From Candidatus Latescibacterota bacterium (GTDB lineage Bacteria; Latescibacterota; CBDEFO01), in NCBI GenBank assembly GCA_965248755.1, contig OZ252149.1, positions 1,216,001-1,280,000 on the forward strand: a stretch of DNA of 64,000 bases. The letters run 5' to 3'. The position numbers and the translations under genes were made by a program. Below are positions 19,704-62,000 of this stretch, one piece after another (the stretch's first letter is position 1; the number at the start of each line of letters is the position of its first letter). Under the pieces are notes generated by a model, which worked only from the letters and a program-made list of their open reading frames with translations, was not told where the DNA came from and searched no databases.

Positions 19704-19779
19704 GGGCTATTAGCTCAGTGGATAGAGCGTTGGTCTCCGGAACCAAAGGTCGCGCGTTCGAATCGCGCATAGCCCGCCA
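19704..19779 (+). tRNA. tRNA-Arg (anticodon CCG)
   Basis: Acceptor stem GGGCTAT/ATAGCCC, anticodon arm TTGGT-CTCCGGA-ACCAA, T-loop TTCGAAT, encoded CCA; 76 nt. Confidence 0.97.
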
Positions 19780-19888: not shown

Positions 19889-20983
19889 CTATTTTCCTAT
19901 GTTTTCGTCTACCTTCTTTTTGCCATAGTGCAAAGCATTGACCAAGTCCTTGACGTGGCCAGGTGCAAGATGAGCATACTTTAAGGTTGTGGAGTAATCA
20001 CGATGGCCAAGCAGTTCCTGGACAAAACGAAGATCAACTCCGTTCATGACAAGATGACTGGCAAACGTATGCCTTAATAAATGCAGCTTTAGGTCCGGCA
20101 CTCCAGATTCTTCAGAAAGTTTCTTTAAGCTTCTGTCAATTTTGTCTGTCAATCTATTCCCCAAATAGGTAAGAACATACTCTGAATTGTAGTTGTTGTG
20201 TTTCTGATATTTTTTGAGCTGCTCCAAGACCTCAAGAAGGACTTCAGTCATTCCAATGTATCTTACTCTATAGTTTTTAGTGTGCCAGTCATCTTTTGAC
20301 TCTATCTTCACAGTTTTATTCTTGAAATCGGTGTCCGTCCATTTATAGTTGAATAGCTCCTGTTTGCGCATTCCAGTTTGTAAACCAACTTGAATGGTTG
20401 GATACAGGTGGGCATATCTCTTGCCTTTCTTTCCTAACCCAATTGCAGCTTGGAGCACTGAATCAACTTCATCCTCGCTGAGAAATCTTGGCTCTCTCTC
20501 AGGGATTTTTGGACGTTCAACGTCACGAATGGCATTGGAACCCTGGTATCCTAACCTTGCAGCAATCTTCATCATATGAGAAAGAGTAGACATCTCGTGA
20601 ATTACTGTGTATGGACTTGCACCAGAATTTAGACGCTTCCTTTTGTATTCCTCGCATTGGCTGAAACTTATGCTTGACAGAGGCATACCACCAAAAGCCG
20701 GAATTAAATGCTGGTTGATATGAGATCTGTTGGAGAGAAAGCTTCTCCTTGATTTGTTCAGTTCAGCATATTCAAGGTATTGCTTGCTAAACTTTTCTAA
20801 AGTCACTTCCTTTGATTTTACATCAAGCCCAAACTTACCTTCAACAAATTCCTGCTCCCATTTTCGTGCAACTACATCAGCCTGTTTTTTCGTGCCGACA
20901 GCCTTTCTCGTAATACTACCGTCAGGAAGCTTAATGCAGGCATACCATTTTTTGCCTCTTTTGACAGTGAAAGCCATAATCAT
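19889..20983 (-). CDS. Tyrosine recombinase / phage-type integrase
   Basis: TGMRKQE, HLLRHTFAS and LLGH...TLKY catalytic residues; N-terminal arm-binding region. Confidence 0.95.
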   Translation of the reverse strand: MIMAFTVKRGKKWYACIKLPDGSITRKAVGTKKQADVVARKWEQEFVEGKFGLDVKSKEVTLEKFSKQYLEYAELNKSRRSFLSNRSHINQHLIPAFGGMPLSSISFSQCEEYKRKRLNSGASPYTVIHEMSTLSHMMKIAARLGYQGSNAIRDVERPKIPEREPRFLSEDEVDSVLQAAIGLGKKGKRYAHLYPTIQVGLQTGMRKQELFNYKWTDTDFKNKTVKIESKDDWHTKNYRVRYIGMTEVLLEVLEQLKKYQKHNNYNSEYVLTYLGNRLTDKIDRSLKKLSEESGVPDLKLHLLRHTFASHLVMNGVDLRFVQELLGHRDYSTTLKYAHLAPGHVKDLVNALHYGKKKVDENIGK

Positions 20984-34134: not shown

Positions 34135-34145
34135 TACTTCCTCCT

Positions 34146-43694: not shown

Positions 43695-43695
43695 T

Positions 43696-44125: not shown

Positions 44126-44350
44126 AGTCCTCCAGAATCCTACATGACATCCAAACTCTTAATTTTGTTAATACTTTCTTTAAGGTATTGTAACTTGTTT
44201 TCAATTTGAAAAAAGTCAAAAAAGCTTGAATGTTTTCTCTGTCTCAGGTATCTATAGTATGACAGTGGTATTAATTTCTCATAGTATTTGTAGAATGATT
44301 GATAAATACTAAATATTTGTAAGATATATATATTATCATCAAAAAAAAGC

Positions 44351-45146: not shown

Positions 45147-45164
45147 ATGAAAAGGAGGATTAAG

Positions 45165-47087
45165 ATGAACTGGAAGATAAGTATAGTAGCTTTCGCTCTT
45201 GCACTTTCGTTCCCTTTTTCAGTCTGGTCCAATGTTGTTGGAACAACTTTCTCCACCATTTTGGTAGAAGATCCAAAGATTACTCTAGATGGGGATTTAG
45301 CAGACTGGGACAAGATAGGGTTAGAGGCAGTCAATATTGAACATTTCTGGTATGGACCAAAAGCAGATGCGGCAGACATTTCGGGAAACTTCCGGACTTT
45401 TGTGGATAAGCATCACTTGTATATAGGTGTCAAGGTAAGCGACGACCTGGTGTGCTCAGGCACTACATGGGGCAGAGAAGGGTTTCAGGATGATGTTGTG
45501 GAGGTGTCTTTTAATGGGGATCTGGACGGGAACGTACAAGTGTTGCGGGGGAGAGAGAAGGACTATTTCGATCTCAACGACGGGGAGATACGGATTGTGA
45601 TGGACGCACCGGGAAAGGTTCATCTGGAAGGTTCAGGCGTTTTTTTCTATCCCGTGCCAGATCCCTATGATCAGGAGATTCCGTATACATGGGAGCTTTT
45701 AGGAGTAGAGGCAGGAGTTAAGCAGACAGATACCGGATATACAGTTGAAGTGCGTATACCAAAAGAAGTATTAGGTTTAAGGCAATTCGTTCAAGGAACT
45801 CAAATCGGTTTGAATGTGAGAATTGTAGATGATGATGATGGGGGAGAACGTGATAATGTATTAAGTTGGATTAGGTATAAGGAAACCGAGAGTGGGTATC
45901 CCTACGAGGTCGTACAGATGGGAACCGAGAGTGGGGGTCCCTACGGGGTGGTACAGATAGAAGGTGTTACAGAGTCTTCGGAGATGGTAGACTTAGTCGT
46001 CGGGAAGGTGAAAGTAGAACAAGGTTCACAGGAGCTGGTGGTGACCATGGAGCCGCAGGAGGACTTAGAACTTCAGGATATTTATGGCCTTATCTCCGAA
46101 GGCAAGATAACTGAAGCTCAGGCCAAATTGGAGGAATGGGCTCTGATCCATAAGGAGGATACGCAAAGAATACGGGCTTTGTATCTTCTGGGCAGATTTT
46201 ATTGGCAGTCTGGACAGTATGAGAACGTGATTCAGACAATGGAAAGACTTGTGAGGCTTTCATCATCAGAGATTGTAAGATGCTATGCTCTACAGGTGAT
46301 GGGCAATGCGTATGATGCCGTGGGGGAATATCAAAAAGCTATTACGAGTTGTGAGCGGATACTCAATATTGTAGACTCAGGTTCATATGTGGCAAAGTAT
46401 GCGACCGTAGAAATGGGGCTATATAAGATCAAACTGGGAGAATATGAGCAAGGCTTTAAGCTGTATGAGGAGGCTTGGAAGGAAAGAGAAGGTTCCCGAC
46501 TAACAGTGTTTGGAGATGCTTATCAAGGACAGGGAATATATAATGATGCCATTTACCGATATGAAAAAGATGTCGTAGAAACAGTGCATCCAAAGATAGA
46601 ACTGGTAGGATACGAGCAAGCTGCTAAGACTGCTAAGATGTATAAAGAGGCTTGGGAGGCTTTGGGAGAAAGAAAAGATTCCCCTGGAAATAGCGGGAGA
46701 CTAATTCTATTCGCATTGGGACAAGTTTATGAGGGGCAGGGAAGATACAAGGATGCCATTTCCCAATATCATAAAGTAGCCGAGTTATATCCCAACGTTG
46801 CAGCATTGGCTCAATATCATATAGGCTTCAATTACTGGAAGCTCGTAGAGTTTGATCTTGCTATCATGCAGTTTGAAAAGGTACTGGATAATTATCCAGA
46901 GTTTCAGGTTCACAAAGCCTCCCAAGCCTCCATAGCCCGACTCTTATTAGCAAAGCTCTATGCCCGGAAAGGAGATCCGAGAGCCAGGAAACATGCTCAG
47001 AAATTTATAGATCATTTTCCCAACAGTGAACCTGGCAGTTGGATGTATAATTCTCGGATTGATATGTTAGAAATCCTGAACAGGTAG
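45165..47087 (+). CDS. Secreted CBM9/DOMON-like domain plus TPR protein
   Basis: Signal peptide; ITLDGDLADW, LYIGVKVSDD, GYTVEVRIP, DDDDGG; C-terminal TPRs. Confidence 0.82.
   Translation: MNWKISIVAFALALSFPFSVWSNVVGTTFSTILVEDPKITLDGDLADWDKIGLEAVNIEHFWYGPKADAADISGNFRTFVDKHHLYIGVKVSDDLVCSGTTWGREGFQDDVVEVSFNGDLDGNVQVLRGREKDYFDLNDGEIRIVMDAPGKVHLEGSGVFFYPVPDPYDQEIPYTWELLGVEAGVKQTDTGYTVEVRIPKEVLGLRQFVQGTQIGLNVRIVDDDDGGERDNVLSWIRYKETESGYPYEVVQMGTESGGPYGVVQIEGVTESSEMVDLVVGKVKVEQGSQELVVTMEPQEDLELQDIYGLISEGKITEAQAKLEEWALIHKEDTQRIRALYLLGRFYWQSGQYENVIQTMERLVRLSSSEIVRCYALQVMGNAYDAVGEYQKAITSCERILNIVDSGSYVAKYATVEMGLYKIKLGEYEQGFKLYEEAWKEREGSRLTVFGDAYQGQGIYNDAIYRYEKDVVETVHPKIELVGYEQAAKTAKMYKEAWEALGERKDSPGNSGRLILFALGQVYEGQGRYKDAISQYHKVAELYPNVAALAQYHIGFNYWKLVEFDLAIMQFEKVLDNYPEFQVHKASQASIARLLLAKLYARKGDPRARKHAQKFIDHFPNSEPGSWMYNSRIDMLEILNR
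45882..45959 (+). repeat. In-frame 39-bp tandem duplication
   Basis: ETESGYPYEVVQM / GTESGGPYGVVQI. Confidence 0.85.
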
Positions 47088-47096
47088 TTCTAAATT

Positions 47097-47651
47097 ATGA
47101 TGAAACATCATGTGCCGAATGTCCTGTTAGTGTCTTTAGTTATAGTAATTTTAGGGGGGGCTCTGGTCGGTGTAGTGTTTCTTGCGAAGGAAAATTTTAA
47201 CTTACGGCATAGAGCTCAGAACGGACCTCTAAAAATTGGTGATAAGGCCCCCAACTTTGAGCTGTGGGATATGGATGGTAAAAAGGTAAACCTGGAAGGA
47301 CTCAAAGGTAAAAGCGTTCTGCTTTACTTTTTTACCACCGGATGTGGTATCTGTAAGAGAACAGCACCCTATTGGGAAAGGGTTTTGGAATGGCATAAAG
47401 ATAAGGAACTAGTATTGTATGGGATATGTTCTTCAGACGTGCTATCCACAAAAGACTTTCTCACGGAGACACAGGTTTCGTTTTCGGCTCTTTATGATCC
47501 AGAAGGAGAAGTGGAGAGAAAATACAAAGTGAGCAGATCTTCTCAAGGTTTCTTGATTAACAAGAATGGTGAGTTGGTGTTTATCGAAGATGAGAGCATG
47601 TCGGTTGAAGATGCTATAATACAAGTTGATCGCCTGTTGGAGAAGATATGA
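47097..47651 (+). CDS. Membrane-anchored TlpA/ResA-like thiol-disulfide oxidoreductase
   Basis: TM anchor, GDKAPNFEL, CGIC (CxxC), LINKNG. Confidence 0.88.
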   Translation: MMKHHVPNVLLVSLVIVILGGALVGVVFLAKENFNLRHRAQNGPLKIGDKAPNFELWDMDGKKVNLEGLKGKSVLLYFFTTGCGICKRTAPYWERVLEWHKDKELVLYGICSSDVLSTKDFLTETQVSFSALYDPEGEVERKYKVSRSSQGFLINKNGELVFIEDESMSVEDAIIQVDRLLEKI

Positions 47652-48754
47652 AGAACTGGTGTATACAAATCTTAGGTGTACGGGGAAGGCTCTTTTATTC
47701 CTTGACTATCTTTATAATAATGCTCAACGTCGTCATTCTGTGGCTGTTTTTCCATAATGCTACTTTAAGGAAAGAAGTTGGAGCTTCCCCAGTAGTAAGG
47801 TCATCGGGCAGACTACAGAATAATGTAGCAAATGGTGATGCTGCTCCCGAGTTCCAAGCCAGGGACCTGGCGGGTAAGTCCCTGGACACGAAAGATTTGA
47901 AGGGAAAAGTAATACTTATGCTGTTTTTTGATCCATCAGGGAAGAGGTTTTCTTCTCATATTCAGGCTGTCTGGTATGCAAATGTATTGCTGCACAAGTA
48001 TAATCAGCACCTTGCTGTCATCGGCATTTCTTCAGGAACACTGGAGCAGACACAGACCCTGCGACAGAAATTAGGCGTTAGCATTTCGATCATACCTAAC
48101 CAAGGTAAGGAAATCCATGACTTATATGGTGTTCCTTCATATTCTCGAGGTTTTGGAAGTACTATACTTATCGATAGGAATGGGATTGTTCGCTATTCTT
48201 CTACCTATCCAACCGATACAGATTTTACACGCCAACTGGTTGAAGTACAAGTTTTAGGATCTGCAAATACGTTGCTCTATTCAAACCTGCAAGAGTTCTT
48301 TCGGAAGGGTAGACAACTGGAAACGATCAATCTGTTTGATGCTGAGAAAAACTTTTTGCTTTCCGATCTTTACGGCCAGAGGCTCTATATCGCGTTCTTT
48401 GGAACACTTTGTTCACCTTGTGTGGATACCCGGCTTACATACCAATTAAACAAAGCCGCTGAAATGGGAGCTAAAGTAATTGGAATCACCGGTACATCTG
48501 AGACTCTGGAGCGTATATCTCAGTTCAGAAAGATGGAAGGTCTAAAGTTCCCCATTTTTCAGACCTCAGATCCGATAATTATGGAACTAAACTACATAAG
48601 CAGAAATGAGATTCTCACCTATCCCTTCTTCATAGCCACTGACCAATCCGGAGTGGTAGTTCTGAACCAGGTAGGAGATCTCAAGCAGGGGAATTCACTT
48701 AGCGATATCTTGAGTTTCATACAGCGCAACACCGAAGAGGAGGATAAATTATGA
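47648..48754 (+). CDS. Membrane-anchored tandem redoxin-domain protein
   Basis: TM anchor; first AhpC/TSA-like domain lacks CxxC, second has CSPC. Confidence 0.8.
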   Translation: MKNWCIQILGVRGRLFYSLTIFIIMLNVVILWLFFHNATLRKEVGASPVVRSSGRLQNNVANGDAAPEFQARDLAGKSLDTKDLKGKVILMLFFDPSGKRFSSHIQAVWYANVLLHKYNQHLAVIGISSGTLEQTQTLRQKLGVSISIIPNQGKEIHDLYGVPSYSRGFGSTILIDRNGIVRYSSTYPTDTDFTRQLVEVQVLGSANTLLYSNLQEFFRKGRQLETINLFDAEKNFLLSDLYGQRLYIAFFGTLCSPCVDTRLTYQLNKAAEMGAKVIGITGTSETLERISQFRKMEGLKFPIFQTSDPIIMELNYISRNEILTYPFFIATDQSGVVVLNQVGDLKQGNSLSDILSFIQRNTEEEDKL

Positions 48755-49875
48755 AAACAGATAAAGGCAGGCTCATTGCATTATCTATTGCCACATTTGT
48801 GTGGTGTTTGTTCTTGTCTAGCTATTCTGTGAGAGCACAGTCCTCTGGGGAAGCGTCTATTTCAACAGAACAAACGATAGACCCGAATGTCTCGACTATC
48901 TTCCTCGGAGAAAAAGAGGATGACCCACACGAGTCCTTTCACAAACCTTCAGCCATAAAGATCGATGGGGAGGGCAACATTTATGTCCTGGACCAAGGGA
49001 ACAGAAGAATAGTGAAATTTGATGCAGCAGGGGCATTCGTGCGGGAAATCGGAGGAGCAGGGACAGGCCCTGGCGAGTTTTCTAATCCCATCGATCTGAC
49101 CTTGGACAAGGAAGGTAATATCTACGTAGTTGATCTTCCCCGTGGGAGATCTAATAAGCTTGTAATTATAGGAAGAAACGGAGAACATCTAAATAGTTTC
49201 GATATTGGCACGACTTACAAACTATGTGGATCACGAATTGCAGTTAATGATCAGGGCTTGATTTATCTGAACCTTCCGCTGGAAGGAACCTTGTTCTCAG
49301 TGTTCACAAAAGAAGGCCGGAAGGTTGCCTCATTCGGGGAAGTTACCCAATACGAGACAATGATAGAAAACGTAATATCCGAGTCAACGGCGGGTAACCT
49401 ACTATTTAACTCTGTTCTCTTCTGTCTCGACAATAGGGGTTTCGTGAATACTCTGGATTTAACCAGGCCTATCTTAAGACAATACGATACAAATCACAAT
49501 TTAGTTTTTGAGAAGGAGATTAAGAGTCCTGAAATTGCAAAGATTACTTCGAATCTGGAAAGGTCGTTACAAAGGCAAGGAATAAAACGAGAAGAAATAG
49601 TTGAAGGCACAGTATCATCTTTTATGCCATATTTCGAAGATGTTGCGTTGACACCTGAAGGAGACATTCTTGTGTTGTTGACAACTTGGTCTAGATTTCA
49701 TCTTATTAATCTTGAAGGAAACTTAAAGAGAAGAATCAAACCGGTCCCGATGGGACAATATGAACCTAAGAGGGCTTTCGTACGAAGAATGACAATTGAT
49801 ACGGAGGGAAATGTTTATGCAATGAATATTATTAACGGGCTAGTTTTCAAATATCATGAATTTCTCAGACAGTAG
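48751..49875 (+). CDS. Secreted 6-bladed beta-propeller (NHL repeat) protein
   Basis: Signal peptide; DGEGNIYVLD, GTGPGEFSNP and DKEGNIYVVD repeats. Confidence 0.88.
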   Translation: MKTDKGRLIALSIATFVWCLFLSSYSVRAQSSGEASISTEQTIDPNVSTIFLGEKEDDPHESFHKPSAIKIDGEGNIYVLDQGNRRIVKFDAAGAFVREIGGAGTGPGEFSNPIDLTLDKEGNIYVVDLPRGRSNKLVIIGRNGEHLNSFDIGTTYKLCGSRIAVNDQGLIYLNLPLEGTLFSVFTKEGRKVASFGEVTQYETMIENVISESTAGNLLFNSVLFCLDNRGFVNTLDLTRPILRQYDTNHNLVFEKEIKSPEIAKITSNLERSLQRQGIKREEIVEGTVSSFMPYFEDVALTPEGDILVLLTTWSRFHLINLEGNLKRRIKPVPMGQYEPKRAFVRRMTIDTEGNVYAMNIINGLVFKYHEFLRQ

Positions 49876-49988
49876 CTTGAAAACTAGCCCTTTCCGCGCA
49901 GATTGGATGTTAACACATCATTTCTTGGGTAAAACTAACTGTAACTATGGTTACAACATAGTGAAGTGCTCTTGGAGGTGATCCAGGT

Positions 49989-50345
49989 ATGAAGCAAGCG
50001 ATTCTTGTCTTAGCAACTGTGCTAACACTAGTAACAGTGACTGTGATCAGCTACTATTCCCATTCCTATGCTACGGGTCCTCCGTCTTACGACCCACCAC
50101 TATCGATAGCTTGTCTTCGAAAACCACCAGCTGAACCCTTTACTATATGCAAGCCTTATTTGGAATGTAACTGTGGTGACGCATGTTATGGTGAGAGTGG
50201 ATGGTGTACAGAATGTGCTGACCCTCAAGATATCTACTGGAGATGGTGTATATGTTATGATGGTGAAGAGGTATGCGGCACTCCTAAATTTGGACAGTGT
50301 GATATCTGCGTACCCACCCCGGCGAAGGTAATTCAACAACACTAG
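49989..50345 (+). CDS. Secreted Cys-rich peptide (12 Cys)
   Basis: GGAGGTG RBS, signal peptide ending SYA, mature region with 12 cysteines. Confidence 0.78.
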   Translation: MKQAILVLATVLTLVTVTVISYYSHSYATGPPSYDPPLSIACLRKPPAEPFTICKPYLECNCGDACYGESGWCTECADPQDIYWRWCICYDGEEVCGTPKFGQCDICVPTPAKVIQQH

Positions 50346-50458
50346 GCACCCTGAAGACATTGATTCATAATGCGTCTAGCTATCTGGGTCTGTCTGGTTG
50401 GGTCTGTCAGTGTTTTTGTGTAAATGGGTACCTTCCCATGTCAGCTTTTCCTACATAT

Positions 50459-50851
50459 TCAATCTCCCTTCGAAATGGATCGAAAATTGGTGAATGACCA
50501 AACTCTTATATCTCCGACGTACTCACCTCCAAACTTTACCATCATATCCTTGAGCAGGTAACGGTGGCAGAATAAATCCGCCCGGCAATAGCAGGAAAGG
50601 ATCACCTCCTCCATGTTGAGGATCTCATCCCACCTTTGACTGTTATCCTGATAACTTACTCTCATCATCTCACTGTACTCGTGAGTATATTCCTCCTCAC
50701 TCATCCTGCTTTGTTTGACTCCCATCACCATCTTCCACGTTGGAGCAAATATCCTATCCCCTGACCTCACAGTAATGTCCAGATAGCGATGATCTTTAGT
50801 AAGTCCTAACTTTCCCGCCACTGCAATCTGGACTGTGTAGATCTTCAGCAT
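50459..50851 (-). CDS. DUF488-like protein
   Basis: FAPTW, YxxxY and LSCYC...FCHR motifs. Confidence 0.7.
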   Translation of the reverse strand: MLKIYTVQIAVAGKLGLTKDHRYLDITVRSGDRIFAPTWKMVMGVKQSRMSEEEYTHEYSEMMRVSYQDNSQRWDEILNMEEVILSCYCRADLFCHRYLLKDMMVKFGGEYVGDIRVWSFTNFRSISKGD

Positions 50852-50853
50852 GA

Positions 50854-51708
50854 TTACCTCCTCCTTCTTCTCGGTTCTTCTGCCTCTGTTACAATTCTAT
50901 TGATCTTGTCCAACAAATCCTCCTCATACCAGCTTTTCCTCAACAACTCCTTAAAGCTTGGACTCTTCTCAATATTCTTTCGTATGTGCCTGAGTAAAGA
51001 CCTTGTCTTTTTCTCAGGGGGAAGGTGCTTGATATACTGGATAATTGTCTCAAAACTGTTGTAGTAGAATTTTACGGGTTGATAGTTTCGCCTCCAAACA
51101 TCAATCATCCTTTCCCCAGAATTGATCAGCTTATGCATCCATTTTGGCTCTTTAAGATACTTCCAGATATGGGCCTTCGCAACCCTCCTCCTCTTTCTGT
51201 TCATAGCACCAATATCCTGCAACAGTAAAGGATGTAGAAAGTCCTGGCACGGCCTGTCATAATCATCAATCTTCCAATAAATCTGCTTAGGCGGTGAATC
51301 ATCATAAGGACAGCTTCCATCTTCTCTCATATACTTCTCCATATCTCTAATGTCGCAAACAATGTCACAGATATTGCAGGTTTTCGGCTCGTCATATGGT
51401 TTGTGCTCATAGCATTCTGGGTCATCACTTCTGGTCATCCATACACCGTTTTGGTCAGCTAACTGCAAATCAGGAAGTTCAAATGTTTCTGTTGAAAGTC
51501 CAGACTGGTATTTCTCATATTCCTCAATCTGTAATGGACTTGGAGTATAATACTTCTGATGAAGCTTGCATTCCAGGTAAATATACGATCTTGAAGCTCT
51601 GTCATAATAATCCCGTTCATCTTCTCTCTTCACCTTAACAGGTTTTCCGTGCAAGCATGGTCCGTTTCTGTAACACCTATTCCTGTAAACATCTTTGACT
51701 TCTTTCAA
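50854..51708 (-). CDS. Cys-rich hypothetical protein
   Basis: Long ORF with an AGGTGA RBS and several Cys/His clusters. Confidence 0.7.
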   Translation of the reverse strand: MKEVKDVYRNRCYRNGPCLHGKPVKVKREDERDYYDRASRSYIYLECKLHQKYYTPSPLQIEEYEKYQSGLSTETFELPDLQLADQNGVWMTRSDDPECYEHKPYDEPKTCNICDIVCDIRDMEKYMREDGSCPYDDSPPKQIYWKIDDYDRPCQDFLHPLLLQDIGAMNRKRRRVAKAHIWKYLKEPKWMHKLINSGERMIDVWRRNYQPVKFYYNSFETIIQYIKHLPPEKKTRSLLRHIRKNIEKSPSFKELLRKSWYEEDLLDKINRIVTEAEEPRRRRR

Positions 51709-51771
51709 ACTACATCACCTGGCCTATTCCATTCCATAAAAAATCCGGACAGTAAGTTGCTAATCTTCCTT

Positions 51772-52170
51772 TCATTTTACTTTCTCTTCTATACTTATAA
51801 TCTCCAACTTGTCCAAATCTCCGTCTCGCATAAACCTGTAAGACTGAACCTGCCCATCCACCTCTTTGTTCCAGAGAGTATAAGAAATCCTTACTTTGCA
51901 CAGCCCCATTTTCTTCAAAGCTTCATTTACGTCCCAAAAGATATTTGGAATCTCGTTAATGTTCAACATCTCCTGCACTTCTCCTTTCACCGTAAATCCC
52001 TGAGCCTTCCTTTTCTCCTCTACCATTCTTCTTGGCTTGTAGGTTATCCTTCCCTCATTTGTCTGTAACACAACCCTCCTTATTTTATCCGTTTGACTTC
52101 TATCACTCTCCAGCTCAATCTCACTAATATCTAATTCCCTATTTTCCACATATTCAAATTCATCTACCAA
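51772..52170 (-). CDS. Hypothetical protein
   Basis: GGAGG RBS, TTG start, operonic. Confidence 0.7.
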   Translation of the reverse strand: MVDEFEYVENRELDISEIELESDRSQTDKIRRVVLQTNEGRITYKPRRMVEEKRKAQGFTVKGEVQEMLNINEIPNIFWDVNEALKKMGLCKVRISYTLWNKEVDGQVQSYRFMRDGDLDKLEIISIEEKVK

Positions 52171-52172
52171 TT

Positions 52173-52616
52173 TTATCCTCCAACTTTAAGATGATCAATG
52201 GCTCTTGGCTCCCCGTCCAGATAAGTAATGATTATAGCTCTTTCATTCCCATCCCTTGCAAAATATGAATACAGAATCTTCCTTTTTTTCAACAGAGCAC
52301 CTTGAGCCACCATCTTATCGATCGTCATCCGGAACGCAACCTTCTTTTGCTGAACGTGAGTCTTCCAGGAATAATCTGCTTCCTTCTCAAAATGTGAATT
52401 AGGCCTTTCGTCCAGATAAGTTACTATGACAGCTCTTTTATCAAAATCTTTTACCAGATAGCAATATAGATGCTGCCACTTCCTTAATCCTGCTGTCCTT
52501 ACTGCCCTGTTATGTATCTTAATCTTCCACGTCACACCTATCATCTCAATAGGTGAGATCCAACCAAAATATCTAAATATGGGCCTTACTATTACCATTT
52601 TATCACCTCTTTTCAC
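52173..52616 (-). CDS. Tandem AbrB/SpoVT-like repeat protein
   Basis: Two repeats (GW...KI.I...LYCYL...RAVIVTYLD), each similar to the adjacent 71-aa protein. Confidence 0.65.
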   Translation of the reverse strand: MKRGDKMVIVRPIFRYFGWISPIEMIGVTWKIKIHNRAVRTAGLRKWQHLYCYLVKDFDKRAVIVTYLDERPNSHFEKEADYSWKTHVQQKKVAFRMTIDKMVAQGALLKKRKILYSYFARDGNERAIIITYLDGEPRAIDHLKVGG

Positions 52617-52828
52617 AGCATCTTTCTTGACTTGCCATCCGGATATATTACAATTAAGGTCCTGCCATCCTTATCTTTGGCAACATAGCAGTACAGGGGC
52701 TGTCCGTGTTTCAGTCCTGCCCCCACAGCTATCAGATTGTTTATAGTAATCTTAAACGAACCTCTTCTTTCTCTAACATGGGTTTTCCATCCAAAGGTTT
52801 CAAAGTTTGGGTCAATTACTTTTGTCAT
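52613..52828 (-). CDS. Single AbrB/SpoVT-like protein
   Basis: WKTHVRERRGSFKITI...GLKHGQPLYCY; GGAGTGA RBS. Confidence 0.65.
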   Translation of the reverse strand: MTKVIDPNFETFGWKTHVRERRGSFKITINNLIAVGAGLKHGQPLYCYVAKDKDGRTLIVIYPDGKSRKML

Positions 52829-53208
52829 TTTATCACTCCTGCGTTGTATAAACTAAGAGAAAGATAATCAATAGCTTCAAAAGGCTTTCCATAGAAGTTC
52901 GATTTACAATTCCCCTGAAATTTAGGATATAAGAGCATTTTAGTACTTTTCAGATTCTTGTTCTTCAATCTCCTTGGTCATATCGTTTAATATCTTCATC
53001 CACTCCGGAAGGTGGCTGAATATCTCCTTCTCTTTTTCTGATGCCATAAAAGGAGGTGAGAGCCAGAAGTATATAACAACTTTCCACGTAGTTGGGTATG
53101 AATTGGGGCGTGAAATGGGGAGGGACAAAGAAACGATGGGTTCTTTACAAAAAGCCGGCAGGGTCAAAAGGTCAAAAACAGTAAGACTCAGAAAATGTGA
53201 ATACTAGA

Positions 53209-54420
53209 TTACACCCTTAGTCTCATTTCCCTGATCTTGTTGACAAGAATCCTCTGAACTTCAGGATCTTTCACAAGTGCGTTCATCAGTTCATCAGAAG
53301 CCTTCCGTTGCTCGTCTAAGCTCAACACAGTCTTTAGATCTATCGCCATACCACATCTATAGCAGAATTTCACTTTGGGCTGATTCAAAGCCTCACATCT
53401 GGCACATATTTTCGGCTTTCTCTTTTCCAGTTCATCTTCCTTCTTCGTGCTTATCCCATAGCTCTGCATCATCTTCTCTTTCACATCTTCATTAGCCAAA
53501 GATACGTAGTAAGAATACATATTGCTGTTGTCTGCCCAGCCAAAGAACTTGTTGGCCATAATAGTGTTCCAGTTATTCAGCACACACCATAAAGCCCGAG
53601 AATGTCTGTACAGATGCGGGTTCCAGGATTTCCTTATTCCAGCTTTTTTGAAAGACCTCTCAAATATTTTGTAGAATGTCCGGTATCTTAACGGCTTATA
53701 TTTGTGTATCCTATCCTGTCCCATGGTCACCCACAGGGGAGTCTTTGGATCGTCCTTGAAGGGGTGAAGCTTGAGCCATGTCAACAGATGTGGTGTGCTC
53801 TCAATAACAAAAACTGTCCTGCTTCCTGTCTTGCCTTTAAGATCCACAAGTGTTCCACCATCTTCAAAATGTACGCTGCCAATCGTCATAGAACCTATCT
53901 CTCCTATCCTTGCACCAGTATCCCATATCAAGGATATCAATGCCTTGTCCCTTGCATTCTCACATTCCTCCACAACCTTATGCGCTTCCTCTTCTGTTAG
54001 AAGCTCACTTCTTTTGAGTTTTGGCTTATCCTTTGACTTCATCGTTATTGGTATCCACTCAACATCAACTTTTGTGTAACCTTTCCCTATGAGCCACCTG
54101 TAGAATTTCTTCAACGCCTTGTTGTAATCCTGCTTTGTCCAGGCAGAATAAAAACCATTGTTTTGAATCGACTTCACAAACTTCTTCAGATCATTTTCAT
54201 CTGCTGATGGAAACCCCTTTTTCAATTTCATTGCAATATTCTTCACCATAGAAATTGTCTTTACAATTCTTGCTTTTCCCATTCCACTGCATTCCAGGTC
54301 ATCTATGAACTCTAAAATCAGTTCCTTACTTCTATTAGATATTTCTGCTTCAAGTAAATGTTTTCTGGCTGTCTGTTCTTTTTGTGCAAAGTTATGGATA
54401 TCTATAATTGTTTGCTTCAT
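53209..54420 (-). CDS. Archaeal-type tyrosine integrase with a C-terminal Zn ribbon
   Basis: DIHNF N-terminus, YSAWTKQDY...KKFYRWL, TGARIGE, GKTG, PHLYRHSRA, GW...Y, CARC...FCYRCG. Confidence 0.9.
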   Translation of the reverse strand: MKQTIIDIHNFAQKEQTARKHLLEAEISNRSKELILEFIDDLECSGMGKARIVKTISMVKNIAMKLKKGFPSADENDLKKFVKSIQNNGFYSAWTKQDYNKALKKFYRWLIGKGYTKVDVEWIPITMKSKDKPKLKRSELLTEEEAHKVVEECENARDKALISLIWDTGARIGEIGSMTIGSVHFEDGGTLVDLKGKTGSRTVFVIESTPHLLTWLKLHPFKDDPKTPLWVTMGQDRIHKYKPLRYRTFYKIFERSFKKAGIRKSWNPHLYRHSRALWCVLNNWNTIMANKFFGWADNSNMYSYYVSLANEDVKEKMMQSYGISTKKEDELEKRKPKICARCEALNQPKVKFCYRCGMAIDLKTVLSLDEQRKASDELMNALVKDPEVQRILVNKIREMRLRV

Positions 54421-54442
54421 ACAATTGGGAAAGTATAGCTTC

Positions 54443-54450
54443 TATTTAAA
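54443..54450 (-). promoter_or_regulatory. Archaeal TATA-like box upstream of the integrase
   Basis: Minus strand TTTAAATA ends 22 nt before the ATG, with no Shine-Dalgarno, as expected for a leaderless archaeal transcript. Confidence 0.5.
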
Positions 54451-54692
54451 AGTTCCCCCTAAGTTACCCTTGAAGACAAAGAGCCACCGGAGGGCTACTG
54501 GCTTGAAGGGTAATAAAAGAGAATGAAGTTTACTCCTGTTTTAAAGGTTGTGATTCCAGGTATTTAATTCTTTCGATTTCAACTGGTCCGATGCACTGAG
54601 ATCCAGAGTAGTTTCAAGGTTTTGGAAAAAACAGGCGAAACTTTGCACCTTCATTATTATCCATCCAAATGCGCAAGACATGTTCCATCCCA

Positions 54693-56045
54693 TCACAGAT
54701 CAATCCGTTTTAAACAGACCACTTTTACTTTATCCACGATTTTCCCTTTTAAGCTTTTTTCTATATCCTCTTTAAGTCTTTTGGATACGGCAACAGATAT
54801 TACCTGTTCAAATCCAGCCTTTACACATTTTACGATATTAGAGACAGCATCAGATTTCCCGGTCTCAATCTCAATCGCTATTTTCCTTCCATCCTTGACA
54901 GCAACAACATCAACCTTCTTCCCAGCCCCAACAGAATATTCAGGATAAACTTTATAACCCTTTGCAATGTAATGCTCCATCACTTTCCTCTGCCAGAACT
55001 TATGCTCTGCCCCACCACTTCTGTTAGATGCTCTATACCCAAGCTTTTTAAGATACTCTCTCCCAAGGGCCGTGAGGTCAAACAGCTTCACCTTCCCTCT
55101 TTTAACTCTTACATACACAGGCTTGATGAATCCCCTCTCCTCCAAATCTTTTAAACACTGATTGCCAGCCCTTGGATTTACCTCTAACCTTTTATATCTC
55201 TCAATAACATAGGATTCTGGATGCTTGAAAATATCTGTCAAAAATACCTTCTCTCTCCTGCTAAGTTTATCTCTATGCCAAATCCCTGTATTTCCAGCAG
55301 CTCCAGCTGTCTTAAGACTGAAATCTGTGAAATCACTTAATGAAGATGGAACCTTCCCATCTCCCATCTTACATTCAGGAAATCTAACCAAGAAAGGCTT
55401 CAAAAATCTATCCTGAAGCTTTATGATACCCCATCCTACAGGAAGTCTGCCTATGTAATCCCTCTCCTTATCCAAGAGCATAGCATTTGCCATTGTCCTA
55501 ACATCTTCCTCAGTCTTCAAATTCATACATATAGTTGCATAGTTTGCTATAGCCGGCAGTGTCATCAAATGTGGATGCTGATCTGCTATAATACAGCCAA
55601 CTCCCAACTCCCTTATCTGTCGTAAGACTAATTCAGTTACACTTTCATAACCTATTTTATGTTTTAGAAGGAGATTATGTGCTTCTTCCAAAACGATAGA
55701 GAACCTCAAATCTTTAGAACTTCCTAATTTTAAAAAATGTCTGTAGATCCTTAAAAGTAAAGTCTGAACAAAAAAGCTTTTATCCTGTTGACTCCCTACA
55801 CTTCCGATTTCCAATACAACCTGCTTCTCTGTAAGTTTCTCAATCTCAATTGTCCTATCAGAATTCAGAACCTCGCCTGTTGATCCTGTAGTTACTTTGT
55901 ATAAAACATTTAAAGCAGATGCCTTCCAGTCCCTTTCCCTTGAAAAAGGTTGGTAATTTAAAATCCAGTTATAGATTGATTTGAAATTTATATTTTTATT
56001 CGAAGCTATCAGTTCATCCACTGCCTTTAACAACAGATACTCAGC
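54693..56045 (-). pseudogene. 5'-truncated HerA/VirB4-like ATPase with wHTH and PD-(D/E)xK nuclease domains
   Basis: Walker B IVLEEAH, RQIRELGVG, ADQHP; C-terminal EH...KVDVVA...IAIEIETG. Walker A absent because the reading frame is cut near 56045-56060. Confidence 0.78.
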
Positions 56046-56086
56046 CGCATTTGCTAACTAGCAAGTAATAGGGTTTCATGGCATCC

Positions 56087-56113
56087 CTGGATTCCCGTTT
56101 CCACGGGAATGAC
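56087..56113. repeat. REP-like palindrome
   Basis: CTGGATTCCCGTTTCCACGGGAATGAC (ATTCCC-N8-GGGAAT class). Confidence 0.7.
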
Positions 56114-56307
56114 ATTAATTCATGAAATTGTTGCGCTTCCTGAAATTGAGGGGACTTCTTTCTCATCTCCTCAAACATCTCCAGGTTTTCCACATCTTCT
56201 ATCCGCTCTAACATCTCTCTGTGCTCACGTATATGACACTTAAAATATGACAGCCCCCTGCCTGGGGACCGGTGTTATAAGCTGACCGCAGGCGGCGGAG
56301 ATATCTC

Positions 56308-56640
56308 TGAGCCGATCTATGCCGGGCACAAATCCTGCCGTGGAGACGGTTATCTTGCGAGCGCCGATCCCGAGTCCCATCTCCAGACCCATGAGCCTTA
56401 TGGCCCTGACCACGTTTTTGTAGTTCAGGAGCGGCTCTCCCATACCCATCATCACCACGTTGGTGATGCCGTCGTCTATCTGCTTATGATGTCTCCTGAC
56501 GGATATGAGCTGATCTATAATCTCTGCGGCAGAGAGGTTCCGTATCAGCCCCATCCTTGCGGTCGAACAGAAGGTGCATCCCAGAGCACACCCGACCTGA
56601 GAGGATACGCAGACCGTCCTGCGTTTCCCTTCGACGTCCT
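56308..56640 (-). pseudogene. rlmN: Internal fragment of dual-specificity RNA methyltransferase RlmN
   Basis: [30 protein letters not shown] and ITVSTAG motifs; both ends missing, boundaries approximate. Confidence 0.85.
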
Positions 56641-56741
56641 CAAGTGCATATCGAAGGACTTTCACGTTAGGATGGTCTAGACCGAGGACCTTCTTACTGA
56701 TTGTCAGTGCCCGCTTGAAGAGAGGCTGGATCTCACACCCC

Positions 56742-57301
56742 TTACCTCCCAGCAGTCCCTCTGGGCACGTTGAGGTCTAGACCAAGCTGTTTTGCCACCA
56801 AAAGTTGCATGGCCGAATTGAAATTTAGAGTGGATTGATCGGTGCCACTAGCACCGCCAGAACCACCCATAACCAGCTGCGGAACCTGACGTTTTGCATA
56901 AGCATCAGCCCAAAACTTCATCACCTTTTCGTAAGTCTCAAGCTTTATCTTTAAGGAGCCGTCTGCCTTCATTATCAGCCTTTTGCGTTCGGCTTCGCCC
57001 TGGCCCAGCAGGATTTCGCGCTGCTTTTGGAGTTCTGCGGCCTGCCGCTGCAGCTTGGCTACCTCAAGCTCCTGTTGGGCTCGCAATTCGGCGACCTCTT
57101 TTTCCTGCAGGGCTTCAACCACAGCACGAATCTTCTCCTCCTCCTTTTCGTACTGGGCTTTAATGACATTGGCTTTACCTACGGCCTCTTTAGTCAGCTT
57201 TTCCTGCTCGGCCTGCTGCGCTTTGGCCCGAGCAGTAGCCACCGCCATTAATGCTTCCTGTTGAGCAGAAATCTGAGCTGAGACCTTTTTCTCGTACTTA
57301 T
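56742..57301 (-). pseudogene. C-terminal fragment of an SPFH/flotillin-like coiled-coil protein, cut by IS1380
   Basis: Ala/Glu/Gln coiled coil, GEAE, VPQLVMGG; the 5' end stops at the IS terminal repeat. Confidence 0.75.
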
Positions 57302-58927
57302 CCGACATTCCCCATATCACATTCATGAGGGATTATATTTCGATACATTCTTGTTTCTGAATTAATATTACCACTTTTACATTTTTCAACAAGTACTTTT
57401 TTCAATTAAAATAGTATTTTCCTCTGAATTATCACTTTCTTTGTGTTTAAATCCTCCAATTAGAGACACCTCTCCATCGACTCACAAAAAAATGTGGCAG
57501 TTTAAACAGAATAACATCGCAATCGTTCAATCCGGGATAATATTTCGGCAAATAACCTCTTGTCTATCCCAACCTCAGCCATTTGAAACGTAATATATCC
57601 GCTGTGTCTGACAATCTTCGCTCCGATTTTGATAAATTTCACGAGGAGGCTGCGTAGTGACCAGTGTTTGATTTTCTTCGGAAGAACAAAACGTCGCAGG
57701 AAGTTGCCCAAGTTGTAAGCCAGAACAAACAGCCAGAGCCTCACCTGATTGGAGACGAAACGCTTGCATGAGAGTCGGGTCCAGTTCAGAGCATACTTGC
57801 CCTCCTTAATCCACTGCTCAGCTCTGCCACGGCCATTGTAGAAGTGTACCACGCCTTCTGGCTTGGCGCTCATGTTGGTCACGATAAATCCCACTCTTGG
57901 GAATAACTCCCCTTGGTGCCATTCAACCTTGGCGACCACTCGCCTCGATTGATCCCAACTGGCCGCTTTATATTGAAATTCATATAACGATACAATCGGT
58001 TTCCTCGGCGGTCGTCCAACTGGCCGAGTCAGCAGGTATCGTATCTTTTCATAGAGTATCTCATTTGCGGGAAGCCGAATGGCATACAAATAGCCGTTTC
58101 CCTCCAGATAATCATAAATCTCAGGCTTTGCGAATGCAGCATCGCCTCGAAAGTATTTCCTATTCTTCTTGCTCTCGTATCTCTTGACGATCGGTTCCAG
58201 AACTTCCTTCCAACGATCAGCACTGTGAACATTACCAGAGCGAAGTAGGACTCCTTCACAATCCCCGAACTGATTGAAGCAGAACACTGGATGAAAACAG
58301 GTACATCCGAAATGACCGTTGTAAGCTGATCCTTCCTGCTGGCCATGTACCGGACTCTCCGAACTGTCCATGTCCAGAATGATTCGTTGATGCTGTGTTT
58401 TACTCATCGCTTTTTGAACCCACTTGCCATTGATATCTGACAAGTTTCTGAGATTGTCATGCTGAGTCAGTATATCAGTTTCAAAACGTCCTATCGTGTT
58501 GGAGCTGGCAGCTTGCCTGCCTTTGTCCTTCTTTCCGGTAATCGCTCGCATGACGGGATCAACGGATAATCGCTCGGCGTCATTTACATCTTCATATCCT
58601 GCAAGACGGCTGTATATCGATTGACGCAGGAGAGTAGATATATCATGTTGGATATTACGGCCTGTGCGTTTATCGGTAAAAACCGCTGATACCGAATCAA
58701 ATAATCCCAGTGCGTAATCAAGGTCACGATACGCAAGAAGTCCACCGTTTGATGTCACCTTTGCACCATGAAATTCAAGCTTTATTCCTCCATCAAAACC
58801 TACTTTCATTCTTTCACCCTCTGGATGATCAATATTTATCCGCCATTTATGAGTCTTATTTATTGTAATATAACATGTTCTGGCGACTTTGACAACCATT
58901 TTTCGGGTCTAATATGGCGAATGGGGG
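57302..58927 (-). mobile_element. IS1380-family insertion sequence (1626 bp)
   Basis: Terminal IRs CCGACATTCCCCATAT / CCCCCATTCGCCATAT; flanks TTAT and TTAA (no perfect target duplication). Confidence 0.85.
57502..58899 (-). CDS. IS1380 family DDE transposase
   Basis: TSNGGLL, GYEDVND, LDMDSS, RGDAAF and FYNGRGRAEQWIKEGK motifs. Start uncertain. Confidence 0.93.
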   Translation of the reverse strand: MVVKVARTCYITINKTHKWRINIDHPEGERMKVGFDGGIKLEFHGAKVTSNGGLLAYRDLDYALGLFDSVSAVFTDKRTGRNIQHDISTLLRQSIYSRLAGYEDVNDAERLSVDPVMRAITGKKDKGRQAASSNTIGRFETDILTQHDNLRNLSDINGKWVQKAMSKTQHQRIILDMDSSESPVHGQQEGSAYNGHFGCTCFHPVFCFNQFGDCEGVLLRSGNVHSADRWKEVLEPIVKRYESKKNRKYFRGDAAFAKPEIYDYLEGNGYLYAIRLPANEILYEKIRYLLTRPVGRPPRKPIVSLYEFQYKAASWDQSRRVVAKVEWHQGELFPRVGFIVTNMSAKPEGVVHFYNGRGRAEQWIKEGKYALNWTRLSCKRFVSNQVRLWLFVLAYNLGNFLRRFVLPKKIKHWSLRSLLVKFIKIGAKIVRHSGYITFQMAEVGIDKRLFAEILSRIERLRCYSV

Positions 58928-59090: not shown

Positions 59091-62000
59091 ATGGACAAGC
59101 AACAAGCAAAAAACATCATTCAAGAAACGTTTGAAAAACCTTTCGATAAAGAGAGGTTTATCGGTTTCGTCAAGAATCTTCTCAATCAGATTGAAGATGC
59201 CACTTTTACATATCAGGGCAACTATATCCGGGATGCTTATTAACCTTACATTTCATCCCTGGAACGTATTGGCAAATACTCAGATGGCGAGCATGAAATT
59301 GACATCCTGATTGTCCAATTAAAGAAGTAAACTTCGCTTGAACGCGCCCGCACCATGCAGCGCAATTTCATCGCACGGTACTTGGACGGCAGCCGAGGCG
59401 GAGAACTGAAAGATGCTGCTTTGGTTGCCTTTGTTTCTCCCGGCGAAGCGGACTGGCGATTTTCGCTCGTTAAGATGGACTATCGTTTTGAAGAGAGCAA
59501 AACCGGCAAAATAAAAGTCAAAGAGGAGTTTACTCCTGCAAGACGCTGGTCTTTTCTGGTTGGCAGTAACGAAGCCAGCCACACTGCCCAGAGCCGGATT
59601 GTCCATATCCTTGCTGGCGATGAGCACAACCCTACCCTTAGCCAACTCGAAGAAACTTTTAACATTGAAACTGTTACGAGAGAGTTTTTTGAAAAATACC
59701 GTGAACTGTTTATTCGTGCCAAAGAGGCGTTGGATAAGGTTGTTGAGAAGGACAGCAAAGTAAAAGCCGATTTCGAATCAAAGGGCGTGGATACGGTTAA
59801 CTTTGCCAAGAAACTTCTGGGACAACTGGTGTTTCTGTATTTTCTGCAGAAGAAAGGCTGGTTCGGAGTCAAACGAAATGAAAAGTGGGGCTCGGGGTCA
59901 AAACACTTTTTACGTGAGCTCTTTGAGAAAAAACATGGCGACTACGGAAATTTCTATGACGATATTTTAGAAACACTTTTTTACGCAGCATTGCGAAACG
60001 ACCGTTCACACGATGACCACTATTTCAGTCAATTCAGATGCAAGATACCGTTTCTGAACGGTGGTCTTTTCGATCCGATGAATGATTATGACTGGGTTGA
60101 GACGGATATTCTTCTTCCAGATGAACTTTTCTCAAATAAGATCAAAACAAAAGAAAGCGATATTGGTACTGGCATTTTAGACATCTTTGACCGATACAAC
60201 TTCACTGTCAAAGAAAATGAGCCACTGGAAAAAGAAGTAGCTATCGACCCGGAGCTGCTGGGTAAAGCCTACGAGAAATTCAACGCTATTCGGCCTGATA
60301 ATTACGATGAATACAGGGCGGCGTTAAAGAGTGGGCAAAAGGGTGCAGAAAACAAATTCAACAAGAAATTTGGGGTTTACTATACCCCCCGGGAAATCGT
60401 GCACTATATGTGTCAGCAAAGTCTAATCAACTACCTGCACACAGATTTGAACAAGGGAACCACTTCATACCAAAGAATCGGTGAGTCTCAAACGAACGCT
60501 TTTGGCAACGAAACGAAAACAGGTCAATTAGATTTGACCAGTGAAAACCGAACTGAGCCAGAAATAGGTAAAGAAGACATCGAAACCCTGATCAAATCCG
60601 GTGAGCAGGTTGGCGAAAACGAAGTAACTGTGCTTGTCAAAGAAAAGAACATTGCAGAAGGGAAACAGCAAACCACAACACTCAGCTCAAATCTGCCAGA
60701 AAGCATCCGCCAGAATGCTCGGAGGATAGACGATGCGCTTGCCAATATTACCGTCTGCGACCCGGCCGTTGGCAGCGGAGCCTTTCCGGTGGGCATGATG
60801 CACGAGATTGTCAAAACGCGGAATGTGCTCTCTACTTTTGTCGAAGACCGAAACCACACCATTTACAGTTTCAAACGCGAATGCATTGAAAAATCGCTCT
60901 ACGGCGTGGATATTGACGCGGGCGCGGTCGAGATTGCCAAACTGCGACTCTGGCTCTCACTGGTGGTGGATGAGGATGACATCAAAAACATCAAGCCCTT
61001 GCCGAATTTGGATTACAAGATTGTCTGTGGAAACTCGCTTCTGGCTTACCCATATAAACCTACATGGACTCAGGAAGTGGAATCACTCAAGAAAAGATTC
61101 CTACTAGCCACTAGTCCCAAAGTAAAACAAGAGCTCAAGAATCAAATAGATTCTAAACTCAAAGGGTTTCTTGAGAACTCCAAAGAGTCCTTAGGTTATA
61201 GGGTAGACTTTGACTTTGAGATTTTCTTCTCGGAAGTTTTCTATGAAAAGGGTGGGTTTTATGTGGTGATTGCGAATCCGCCGTATGTGCAGATTCAGAA
61301 ATTACACGCTGATGCAAAAGACCAGCTCGCAAAACAGGGCTATTTGACCTTTGCGAAAACCGCTGATCTCTACTGCCTTTTCTACGAACGCGGGATTGCA
61401 GTTCTGCACTCGGGTGGTGTGCTGGTATTTATCTCCTCCAACAAATTTTTCCGGGCAGGCTACGGCGCTCCATTGCGGCAACTTCTGAACGAAAACAATG
61501 ACCTACTTGAAGTCATAGATTTCGGCGAACTGCCTGTCTTTGATGCCGGAACCGACCCCTGCATCATTCTGGTTGTAAAACGCCAGCCGCAGACAAAAAG
61601 CATAACAGCTGCCATTGTGAAGGATGTTTCCGGCATCCAGAATGTACGTCTGACTATGGAGCACATTGCATTTGAACTGGATCGAGGCAGCCTCAACAGC
61701 AACGGTTGGACACTCGAACATTCAAGTGTCATAAAGTTACTCGAAAAGATCCGCTCCGCTGGAAAGCCACTCGGCGAATATGTAAACGGGCGGTTTTATC
61801 GTGGGTTTTTGACTGGCTTCAATGAGGCCTTTGTCATCGACCGCGCCACCCGCGACAGGTTGATTGGTGAAGACCAGAAATCGGCTGAACTCATCAGGCC
61901 CTGGCTGCGCGGCAAGGATATTCGCCGCTGGTATGCCGATGATTGCGATTTGTTCGTGATCAATATACTCAGTAGTGCAAATACACAATGGCCATGGTCT

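Follow-up and report, generated by a model that had tools for sequence, protein, structure and literature searches.

We examined a 64,000-nucleotide stretch of the chromosome of Candidatus Latescibacterota bacterium (contig OZ252149.1, positions 1,216,001 to 1,280,000; hereafter the window, whose coordinates are used below unless the genome is named), in which a block at 50854-56043 had been flagged as an archaeal-looking mobile element. In a bacterial host, the block carries an intact tyrosine integrase nested among archaeal sequences and preceded by a promoter of archaeal geometry, and it has been truncated and duplicated by insertion sequences (ISs). We favor, with reasonable though not full confidence, the interpretation of the block as a remnant, now stranded, of an archaeal tRNA-targeting integrative element, most likely of the kind found in DPANN archaea of the Woesearchaeota type. 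It represents a real passage between the domains, probably made as a passenger rather than as a working element. The original prediction had posed inter-domain acquisition and chimeric assembly as alternatives: acquisition is supported for the integrase, its promoter and probably the AbrB-like genes but not for the neighboring ATPase, whose family is not specifically archaeal, while a chimera is unlikely given that the right junction is bridged and that a target-site duplication accompanies the second copy of the block. That prediction had missed the shaping of a truncated passenger by IS256 and IS1380 elements, the breadth of the ATPase family and the entry of related integrases into several bacterial phyla.

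The integrase, its promoter and its relatives

The host genome is a single contig of 4.54 Mb (48.9% GC, 98% complete) with one bacterial 16S gene and a bacterial RecA, and it yielded no match to TBP or TFIIB (TFB) in a search that was positive for all four archaeal controls. The block is compositionally unameliorated relative to this host, with a GC content of 39.6% against 48.9% for the genome and AGR triplets making up 20 of the 23 arginine codons of the integrase, as against 54% in the host. The tetranucleotide profile, suggested earlier as a check, likewise sets the block apart, its divergence ranking 6th among 873 genome windows.

The motifs by which the integrase was first recognized, namely the N-terminal DIHNF, YSAWTKQDY..KKFYRWL and a C-terminal CxxC..CxxC Zn ribbon, are all present. 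Its catalytic R-E-K-H-R-W-Y set is complete in an uninterrupted gene, with R171, E174, K197, R272, W295 and Y305 invariant and H269 nearly so across 30 aligned sequences. The catalytic domain scores above the PF00589 cut-off, while the SAM-like domain families (PF13495, 20.6 bits; PF02899, 15.2 bits) and the Zn-ribbon families stay below theirs. Several assignments to established archaeal types were rejected: the pNOB8 type (R...YxxR...Y), as the protein reads H269-L-Y-R272; the SNJ2 type (Glu/Asp-I to Gly/Ala, His/Trp-III to Ala/Val), as it keeps E174 and W295; the suicidal SSV type (KxxR, gene split by the attachment (att) site), as the gene is whole and has HxxR; and archaeal XerA, as NF040815 gives 101.5 bits where 220 are required.

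Upstream of the gene, the TATA-like TTTAAATA ends 22 nt ahead of an ATG that lacks a Shine-Dalgarno sequence, exactly as originally described. It is preceded by GGAACT, which we take to be a B recognition element (BRE). The exact TTTAAATA lies at a spacing of 19-28 nt ahead of only 3 of the 3410 long open reading frames (ORFs) of the host. Among integrase loci that start with ATG and have sufficient DNA upstream, a TATA-like box lies at this spacing in 26 of the 60 from archaea and 5 of the 12 from other bacteria, as compared to 40 of the 3410 host ORFs. The combined BRE and TATA pattern is unique to the two integrase copies of the genome. As the pattern had been fitted to the site, and chance alone would yield about 2-3 occurrences, we gave it no weight by itself. 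Rfam recovered no RNA or tRNA remnant between 52.8 and 54.75 kb, and the intergenic DNA folds no better than its shuffles (z 0.6).

Alignment of the upstream DNA of related loci located a candidate att core that ends 61 nt before the ATG, the corresponding distance being 62 nt in L003, one of the two nearest named relatives. The core agrees with the L003 tRNA 3' end in 12 of 13 bases, a level reached by 1 of 150 null windows, as against at best 10 of 13 bases among the 47 host tRNAs. Among the other bacterial copies, 7 of 13 have an att-like core exceeding their own null at 3/150 or better. If introns are allowed, a tRNA end lies within 500 bp upstream of the integrase at 43 of 63 archaeal loci, at none of 13 bacterial ones and at 1 of 48 control sites; if introns are disallowed, 21 of 62 archaeal loci retain one. 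Both nearest named relatives, L003 and L004, have an intron-bearing tRNA 62-74 bp upstream of the integrase, and the L004 contig also carries a TFB gene. The window holds one orphan core with no tRNA at the site rather than paired att sites with one in a tRNA; no partner site was found in the host genome, nor in the incomplete genomes G019 and G168.

A protein search recovered 269 relatives of the integrase, and among the 120 listed, seven of the nine with an organism name are archaeal. The closest is P0002 (78% identity), followed by proteins at 50-60%, all free of a host label, and a metagenome scan returned no context for the relatives at 50-78% (P0002-P0007), nor did cluster look-ups yield names of hosts. 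In named genomes, a scan with the single integrase found nothing, while an alignment query confirmed 343 loci, the best 80 of which are 70 archaeal and 10 bacterial by title. The nearest of these, at 46% identity, lie on Woesearchaeota-type contigs beside intron-bearing tRNAs, and the nearest annotated records are integrases of pleomorphic proviruses of Geoglobus (33%) and Archaeoglobus (30%). Viral contigs contributed 12 related loci (best 36%), and the best matches among phage and plasmid records (33-37%) are archaeal. In both integrase trees the window protein falls in the clade starred there, whose only labelled members are L003 and L004, and it is nested among DPANN sequences. L003 is titled Methanosarcinales, but its neighboring genes read as Woesearchaeota-like. 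Identical integrases also occur in bins titled Methanosarcinales and Woesearchaeota (L007 and L008), and several of the 'Methanosarcinales' titles in the set are probably mislabelled DPANN bins. The check by BLASTp and phylogeny that had been proposed earlier thus finds archaeal nesting for the integrase, with the reservation that its closest protein has no host label.

Sequence phylogeny also indicates that the bacterial copies of this integrase are polyphyletic, the bacterial label requiring at least 6 changes on a tree of 114 rows, and several independent entries from archaea into bacteria appear to have occurred. The firmer bacterial cases are the present host, a 4.3-Mb Aminicenantes chromosome (L074), two 300-kb contigs (L037, L054) and the genome G007, in which two genes with type IX secretion system (T9SS) tails lie beside element genes. 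The integrase is present in 3 of 167 other genomes of the same phylum, elsewhere in the tree, and holding the window copy together with two same-phylum copies was rejected by the approximately unbiased test (p-AU 2e-7, 24 of 56 rows). A same-genus genome (G009) had no match to the integrase, the ATPase or the AbrB-like proteins.

Some of these relatives have neighbors of their own to report. Orc1/Cdc6 lies near the integrase at six bacterial loci (L037, L040, L065, L072, L074, L090), often with a PD-(D/E)xK gene, and at none of the archaeal loci clustered; TIGR02928 scores at or near its cut-off in three loci scanned. The host genome itself has no Cdc6_lid match and no tblastn match with the G007 Cdc6. 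Cdc6_lid matches in 34 of 168 genomes were left unused, all except that of G007 being weak and, by their length, probably other AAA+ proteins. Directly downstream of one same-phylum integrase copy is a probable anti-phage gene encoding a SIR2-like protein of 1290 amino acids (aa) (L088 5844-9716, in G019). Genome G040, assembled in two contigs, has two elements with a tandem AbrB gene, a homologue of the 132-aa protein of the block, the ATPase and a far more distant integrase. These integrases (L126 10931-12196 and L130 11356-12669) form a distant subfamily of about 20% identity with a similar N-terminus and cysteine ribbon, and L126 additionally has a RadC gene besides its AbrB, 132-aa and ATPase partners.

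Truncation and copying by insertion sequences

The left boundary of the block lies in an IS256-family relic that is 76-77% identical to the end of an IS of about 1350 bp, present in about 10 genome copies and encoding a transposase that scores 424 bits against NF033543. On the right, the block meets DNA borne by an IS1380-family element, of which the genome has 47 copies with both ends in linear sequence and one across the contig ends. A 5-bp duplication is found directly at the IS in 15 of the 47, at a distant alternative end in 20 and in neither position in 12. Downstream tails common to different copies vary from 58 to 5734 bp, and a 5-bp duplication surrounds the whole unit, tail included, in copy B (described below) and 19 other tailed copies. 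The alternative ends, which may resemble the right inverted repeat, agree with it in 3-7 of 14 bases at 13 ends and in 7 of 14 at copies A and B. This behavior is one-ended capture of the ISEcp1 type. The genome has at least seven families of tails with nested captures, one 186-bp tail being attached to 12 copies, and two different units (genome 2703516 and 2711395) occupy the same position in IS3 copies that are separated by about 8 kb and enclose a dnaK-like gene.

The tail of the IS1380 copy in the window (copy A) contains the 3' part of a gene which we take from its motifs to be SPFH-like, together with an rlmN fragment. At the native site at 2.98 Mb, the IS interrupts a gene whose frame runs on if the IS is removed. 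The tail of copy A ends at 56044, which is precisely where the ATPase gene is cut. Copy B (genome 2711395-2717682), 1.44 Mb away, consists of the IS plus 4662 bp, and is identical to window 52640-58927 over 6288 bp. It is bordered by a 5-bp duplication and lies in an IS3 element; the corresponding site is empty at 51 other places. Copy B thereby contains a second, identical integrase gene (genome 2715902-2717110), and its alternative end at 52640 cuts the 71-aa AbrB gene after codon 63. From the nesting, the order of transposition would be native site, then A, then B.

Measured against its full-length relatives, the ATPase ORF is short of about 200 residues at the N-terminus, Walker A among them; its cut point (56043/56044) is the junction to the IS-borne DNA and its N-terminal half was not found elsewhere in the host genome. 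It is a pseudogene. The original description as a HerA/VirB4-like ATPase with a winged helix-turn-helix (wHTH) and a nuclease is right in so far as the family is HerA-like, but it overlooked the truncation, and the two further domains are weakly matched, by PadR (E 0.066), by phrog_11046 (E 0.002) and by restriction endonuclease (REase)-type Pfam families, each of which matches at most 4 of 40 family members, alongside a conserved D...ExETG motif. The full-length protein would be predicted to act as a DNA pump and nuclease. An archaeal provenance specific to this gene does not follow, as the family is mostly named from bacteria and a tree of its relatives does not place the window copy; it is encoded by 5 of 167 other same-phylum genomes. 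On the Woesearchaeota contig L009, it lies downstream of the integrase with a small partner gene. A motif of about 20 bases from the ATPase linker (window 44048-44127 and 55263-55351; genome 992746, 2917812-2918666 and 3041216-3041478) turns up at four further host sites. In two cases it comes immediately behind a DUF488 3' end, and in one the wHTH-nuclease half comes next; the motif may serve as a signal for recombination or binding.

Other genes of the block and the surrounding island

The region 51772-52828, singled out earlier for a homology check, comprises three ORFs (Table 1), of which the 147-aa and 71-aa products are AbrB-like and the 132-aa one is not. The model of the 147-aa protein predicts a swapped-hairpin barrel in tandem, with MraZ as the closest structure (Z 9.2, rmsd 4.6, 111 aligned residues), above the other entries compared. 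The model of the 71-aa protein gave no structural match above Z 3.9, none of 35 AbrB-family members matched the AbrB Pfam family, and an atlas search gave no usable match for the 132-aa and 147-aa proteins. These AbrB proteins are probably regulators, and the family occurs near the integrase at four archaeal loci and one Omnitrophota locus, in addition to G040. The 132-aa protein matches its G040 homologues with pairwise blastp E-values of 3e-11 and 3e-8. The GGAGTGA and AGGTGA ribosome-binding sites, listed earlier among the features of the archaeal-looking block, pair with the host 16S tail too and precede 11 and 48 of the 3410 host ORFs respectively; hence, they are not archaeal markers. 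Of the remaining genes, the G007 homologue of the 284-aa protein is fused to RNase H near a related integrase, while the DUF488 gene has four partial paralogues elsewhere in the host.

Table 1. Coordinates of the features of the block and its surroundings (window positions unless marked as genome)
Feature	Position	Strand	Remarks
tRNA-Arg(CCG)	19704..19779	+	left att site of the ~52-kb island in which the block lies
Island integrase, bacterial type	19889..20983	-	PF00589 109 bits and PF14659, both above cut-off
IS256-family element end, relic	50400..50505	.	left block boundary; overlaps last DUF488 codons
DUF488-N3a gene	50459..50851	-	PF22751 35.5 bits, cut-off 27
284-aa cysteine-rich protein, unknown family	50854..51708	-	54% identical homologue in G007
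132-aa protein	51772..52170	-	in each of the two G040 elements, a homologue comes after the tandem AbrB gene
Tandem swapped-hairpin (AbrB/MraZ-like) protein, 147 aa (predicted)	52173..52616	-	model pLDDT 88; MraZ Z 9.2, PHS018 Z 5.8
Single-domain AbrB-like protein, 71 aa	52613..52828	-	41% identity to the tandem protein over 59 aa
75-aa ORF, no family	52940..53167	-	may not be a gene
Tyrosine integrase, intact, 403 aa, C-terminal Zn ribbon	53209..54420	-	PF00589 78 bits
Archaeal-type BRE-TATA box	54443..54456	-	22 nt before leaderless ATG
Candidate att core, 13 bases	54482..54494	-	12/13 match to tRNA 3' end preceding the nearest named archaeal relative
5'-truncated HerA-like ATPase gene with putative wHTH and nuclease domains	54693..56043	-	retains Walker B but not Walker A
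Host DNA carried by IS1380, 1258 bp	56044..57301	-	identical at four loci; native to genome 2979129-2980386
IS1380-family element, 1626 bp	57302..58927	-	NF033539 385 bits, cut-off 180
41-bp duplicate of the tRNA-Arg att site	genome 1287362-1287402		~7.4 kb past window end; other island border

Genes for secreted proteins with T9SS/FlgD tails adjoin the block, as part of a cluster (44478-50345) that also encodes CBM9-TPR, thioredoxin-fold and NHL-propeller proteins and a cysteine-rich peptide. A similar TPR gene and cysteine-rich peptide occur near genome 2.912-2.915 Mb, adjoining another relic of the element. Elsewhere in the window, a three-gene island set (32551-37060) comprises a HerA-like ATPase, whose HerA match was tested, and two genes which, from their motifs, we presume to be of the MoxR-like AAA+ and vWA types. 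A gene pair at 43275-43971 resembles a toxin-antitoxin system with a Zn-finger and an AbrB-like antitoxin. The first codons of an Eco57I-type restriction-modification gene (59091-62579) form a short ORF of their own, which suggests that the gene is broken close to its 5' end.

Origin of the block and comparison with known systems

The genomic neighborhoods of the relatives suggest that in archaea the element would recombine a short core from a tRNA 3' end into a tRNA gene, with its integrase read from a BRE-TATA leaderless promoter located 50-170 bp inside the element. The order in the bacterium is ATPase, orphan core, promoter, integrase and AbrB genes, i.e. the ATPase is upstream of the integrase across the core, as against downstream in L009. 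It is the order that one would expect across the junction in an excised circle or a tandem array, which would imply that the DNA was fixed in the tRNA-Arg island by a route other than its own integrase. As the host has neither TBP nor TFB, the block is probably silent. An IS256 end cut it short on the left; an IS1380 unit bearing host DNA went into the ATPase gene, whose upstream half would have been lost later; and, as the 100% identity and the 5-bp duplication show, a further one-ended transposition copied the IS and its extended tail, whole integrase included, into the IS3 copy.

The most serious competitor, which we consider an unlikely but real contender, is that sediment bacteria have long been home to active integrative elements of an old cross-domain family, which use non-tRNA or degenerate sites there and keep the archaeal-looking upstream sequence as a binding or recombination signal rather than a TBP promoter. 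The same-phylum genomes with the integrase (3/167) or the ATPase (5/167), the two complete gene sets of G040 and the bacterial loci with Cdc6 beside the integrase fit such a history, as do the copies in G019 and G012, which keep the same TTTAAATAG geometry despite diverged proteins, and decayed DUF488/ATPase-linker relics elsewhere in the host (74-88% DNA identity), which show earlier invasions. Yet long residence is difficult to reconcile with the failure of the same-phylum copies to form one clade, the want of a partner att site in the genomes searched, the lack of any coding-strand sigma-70 consensus ahead of the integrase, the unameliorated composition of the block and the empty same-genus genome. 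We also deem very improbable that a bacterial defense or DNA-pump module (HerA/FtsK-wHTH-REase) merely acquired one archaeal integrase gene, with no archaeal element involved. Neighborhoods of this composition have been described as probable defense systems in the available part of PMC10853773, the named ATPase relatives are bacterial and the DUF488 gene has host paralogues; but the ATPase, its small partner gene and the integrase occur together on L009, the AbrB family accompanies the integrase at archaeal loci, the promoter and att-like core travel with the integrase and the host has no Cdc6.

Equally improbable is a chimeric assembly in which an archaeal contig was joined to the bacterial chromosome at IS repeats, as might be suspected from the repeats at both block ends (IS256 relic and IS1380 tail). 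Among short-read contigs from four runs (X1-X4), one from X4 spans 50920-56096, joining the integrase, ATPase and DUF488 with 53 bases of the host-derived IS tail in one piece, whereas those from X1-X3 span 50467-56073 and pass the junction by 30 bases, the threshold being 31. Of the junctions named in the read check proposed at the outset, the right one is bridged and, among the contigs listed, the left one is not. Block depth is 0.8-2.3 times that of the flanks in the four runs, a poor measure; the excess in X2 and X3 (1.7-2.3 times) was not used as evidence for copy B, as X1 and X4 show none. Further, copy B has its precise 5-bp duplication in an otherwise empty IS3 site, and the two att sites of the tRNA-Arg island enclose the block.

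Against an archaeal remnant stand several observations that temper our preference for it. The trees are unrooted and quick, and neither P0002 nor the larger part of the clade around it carries a host label, so that the immediate donor could be another bacterium. Misbinned contigs could inflate the count of bacterial changes, several bacterial loci being in fragmented bins. All five organism-named ATPase relatives among the 120 listed are bacterial, and the window ATPase has no supported placement in its tree. The att core is short and was first spotted in the alignment, with the test designed afterwards; six of the 13 other bacterial copies fail their own null, and three of the passing seven are close kin. 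The four runs come from one sample, maybe the source sample, and are not independent; no short-read contig among those listed bridges the left junction, within the IS256 relic, or shows the copy B junction, and in three runs the 50467-56073 contig continues through 52640 without a break, so that copy B may be rare or absent there. Finally, copy A has no matching target duplication, which would imply a later deletion or rearrangement on its upstream side.

It is rare to find that a whole mobile element has passed from archaea to bacteria with its signals preserved. In the present closed bacterial chromosome, the promoter and the probable attachment core can still be read, and truncation and IS copying can be placed in order. 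Should the repeated entries be confirmed, gene flow from DPANN archaea to sediment bacteria could be traced along the route that these integrases mark. With them one can also test directly whether bacteria are able to use archaeal promoters and integrases; if all copies are dead passengers, the block is a clear yet modest example. As a bolder proposal, to which we give about a one-in-five standing, an undescribed element family (Zn-ribbon integrase, AbrB, HerA-wHTH-nuclease and sometimes Cdc6) might routinely shuttle from DPANN and other sediment archaea to many bacterial phyla as excised circles, perhaps by cell contact, with some copies functional and one-ended IS1380 transposition replacing site-specific integration as the route of spread.

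The literature searched, mostly open papers without supplements, gave no account of this integrase family in bacteria, though tables in PMC8371274 and PMC10853773 may list these proteins. In the portions available to us, the classical type II archaeal tRNA-targeting integrases (XerA/XerC/pNOB8 group, PMC8371274) resemble the present one in the intact gene, the catalytic and perhaps the SAM-like domain, the att site (here a candidate) adjoining the integrase, a common archaeal layout (PMC4158269, PMC10919331), and the tRNA targets probable in its archaeal relatives. It differs from them in the C-terminal Zn ribbon, in HxxR rather than YxxR or KxxR, and in its setting, a bacterial host in which the site lacks a tRNA and no virion genes were recognized within the block. 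The accessible text of PMC8138268 gives only the haloarchaeal Arch1 and Arch2 integrase subgroups, whereas the class of 'cryptic integrated element' as set out in the accessible text of PMC6563490 would hold the window element.

The same limitation to the accessible text applies to the other systems compared. The Orc/CDC6-linked 'HerA/FtsK capture' (PMC10853773) likewise has a HerA/FtsK ATPase on mobile DNA, its wHTH and restriction-type nuclease being putative common features, and Cdc6 is near window-type integrases at six other bacterial loci; here, however, the ATPase is truncated and the host has no Cdc6, and no archaeal Zn-ribbon integrase is described in that text. The ISEcp1 units (IS1380 family, PMC12589106) match in one-ended downstream capture, perhaps at degenerate right ends, variable unit length and 5-bp duplications, but the present genome has about 48 copies in one chromosome with nested captures, and the cargo is an archaeal-type integrase rather than a resistance gene. 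The ArcVen-P3/Dehalococcoides provirus pair (PMC4158269) and the archaeal integrons (PMC9668308) are also mobile DNA common to archaea and bacteria; in the former the integrase was exchanged, whereas here the archaeal integrase, promoter and att-like core are retained. Every part of the block is thus of a known kind, while the combination and its repeated crossing between the domains appear undescribed.

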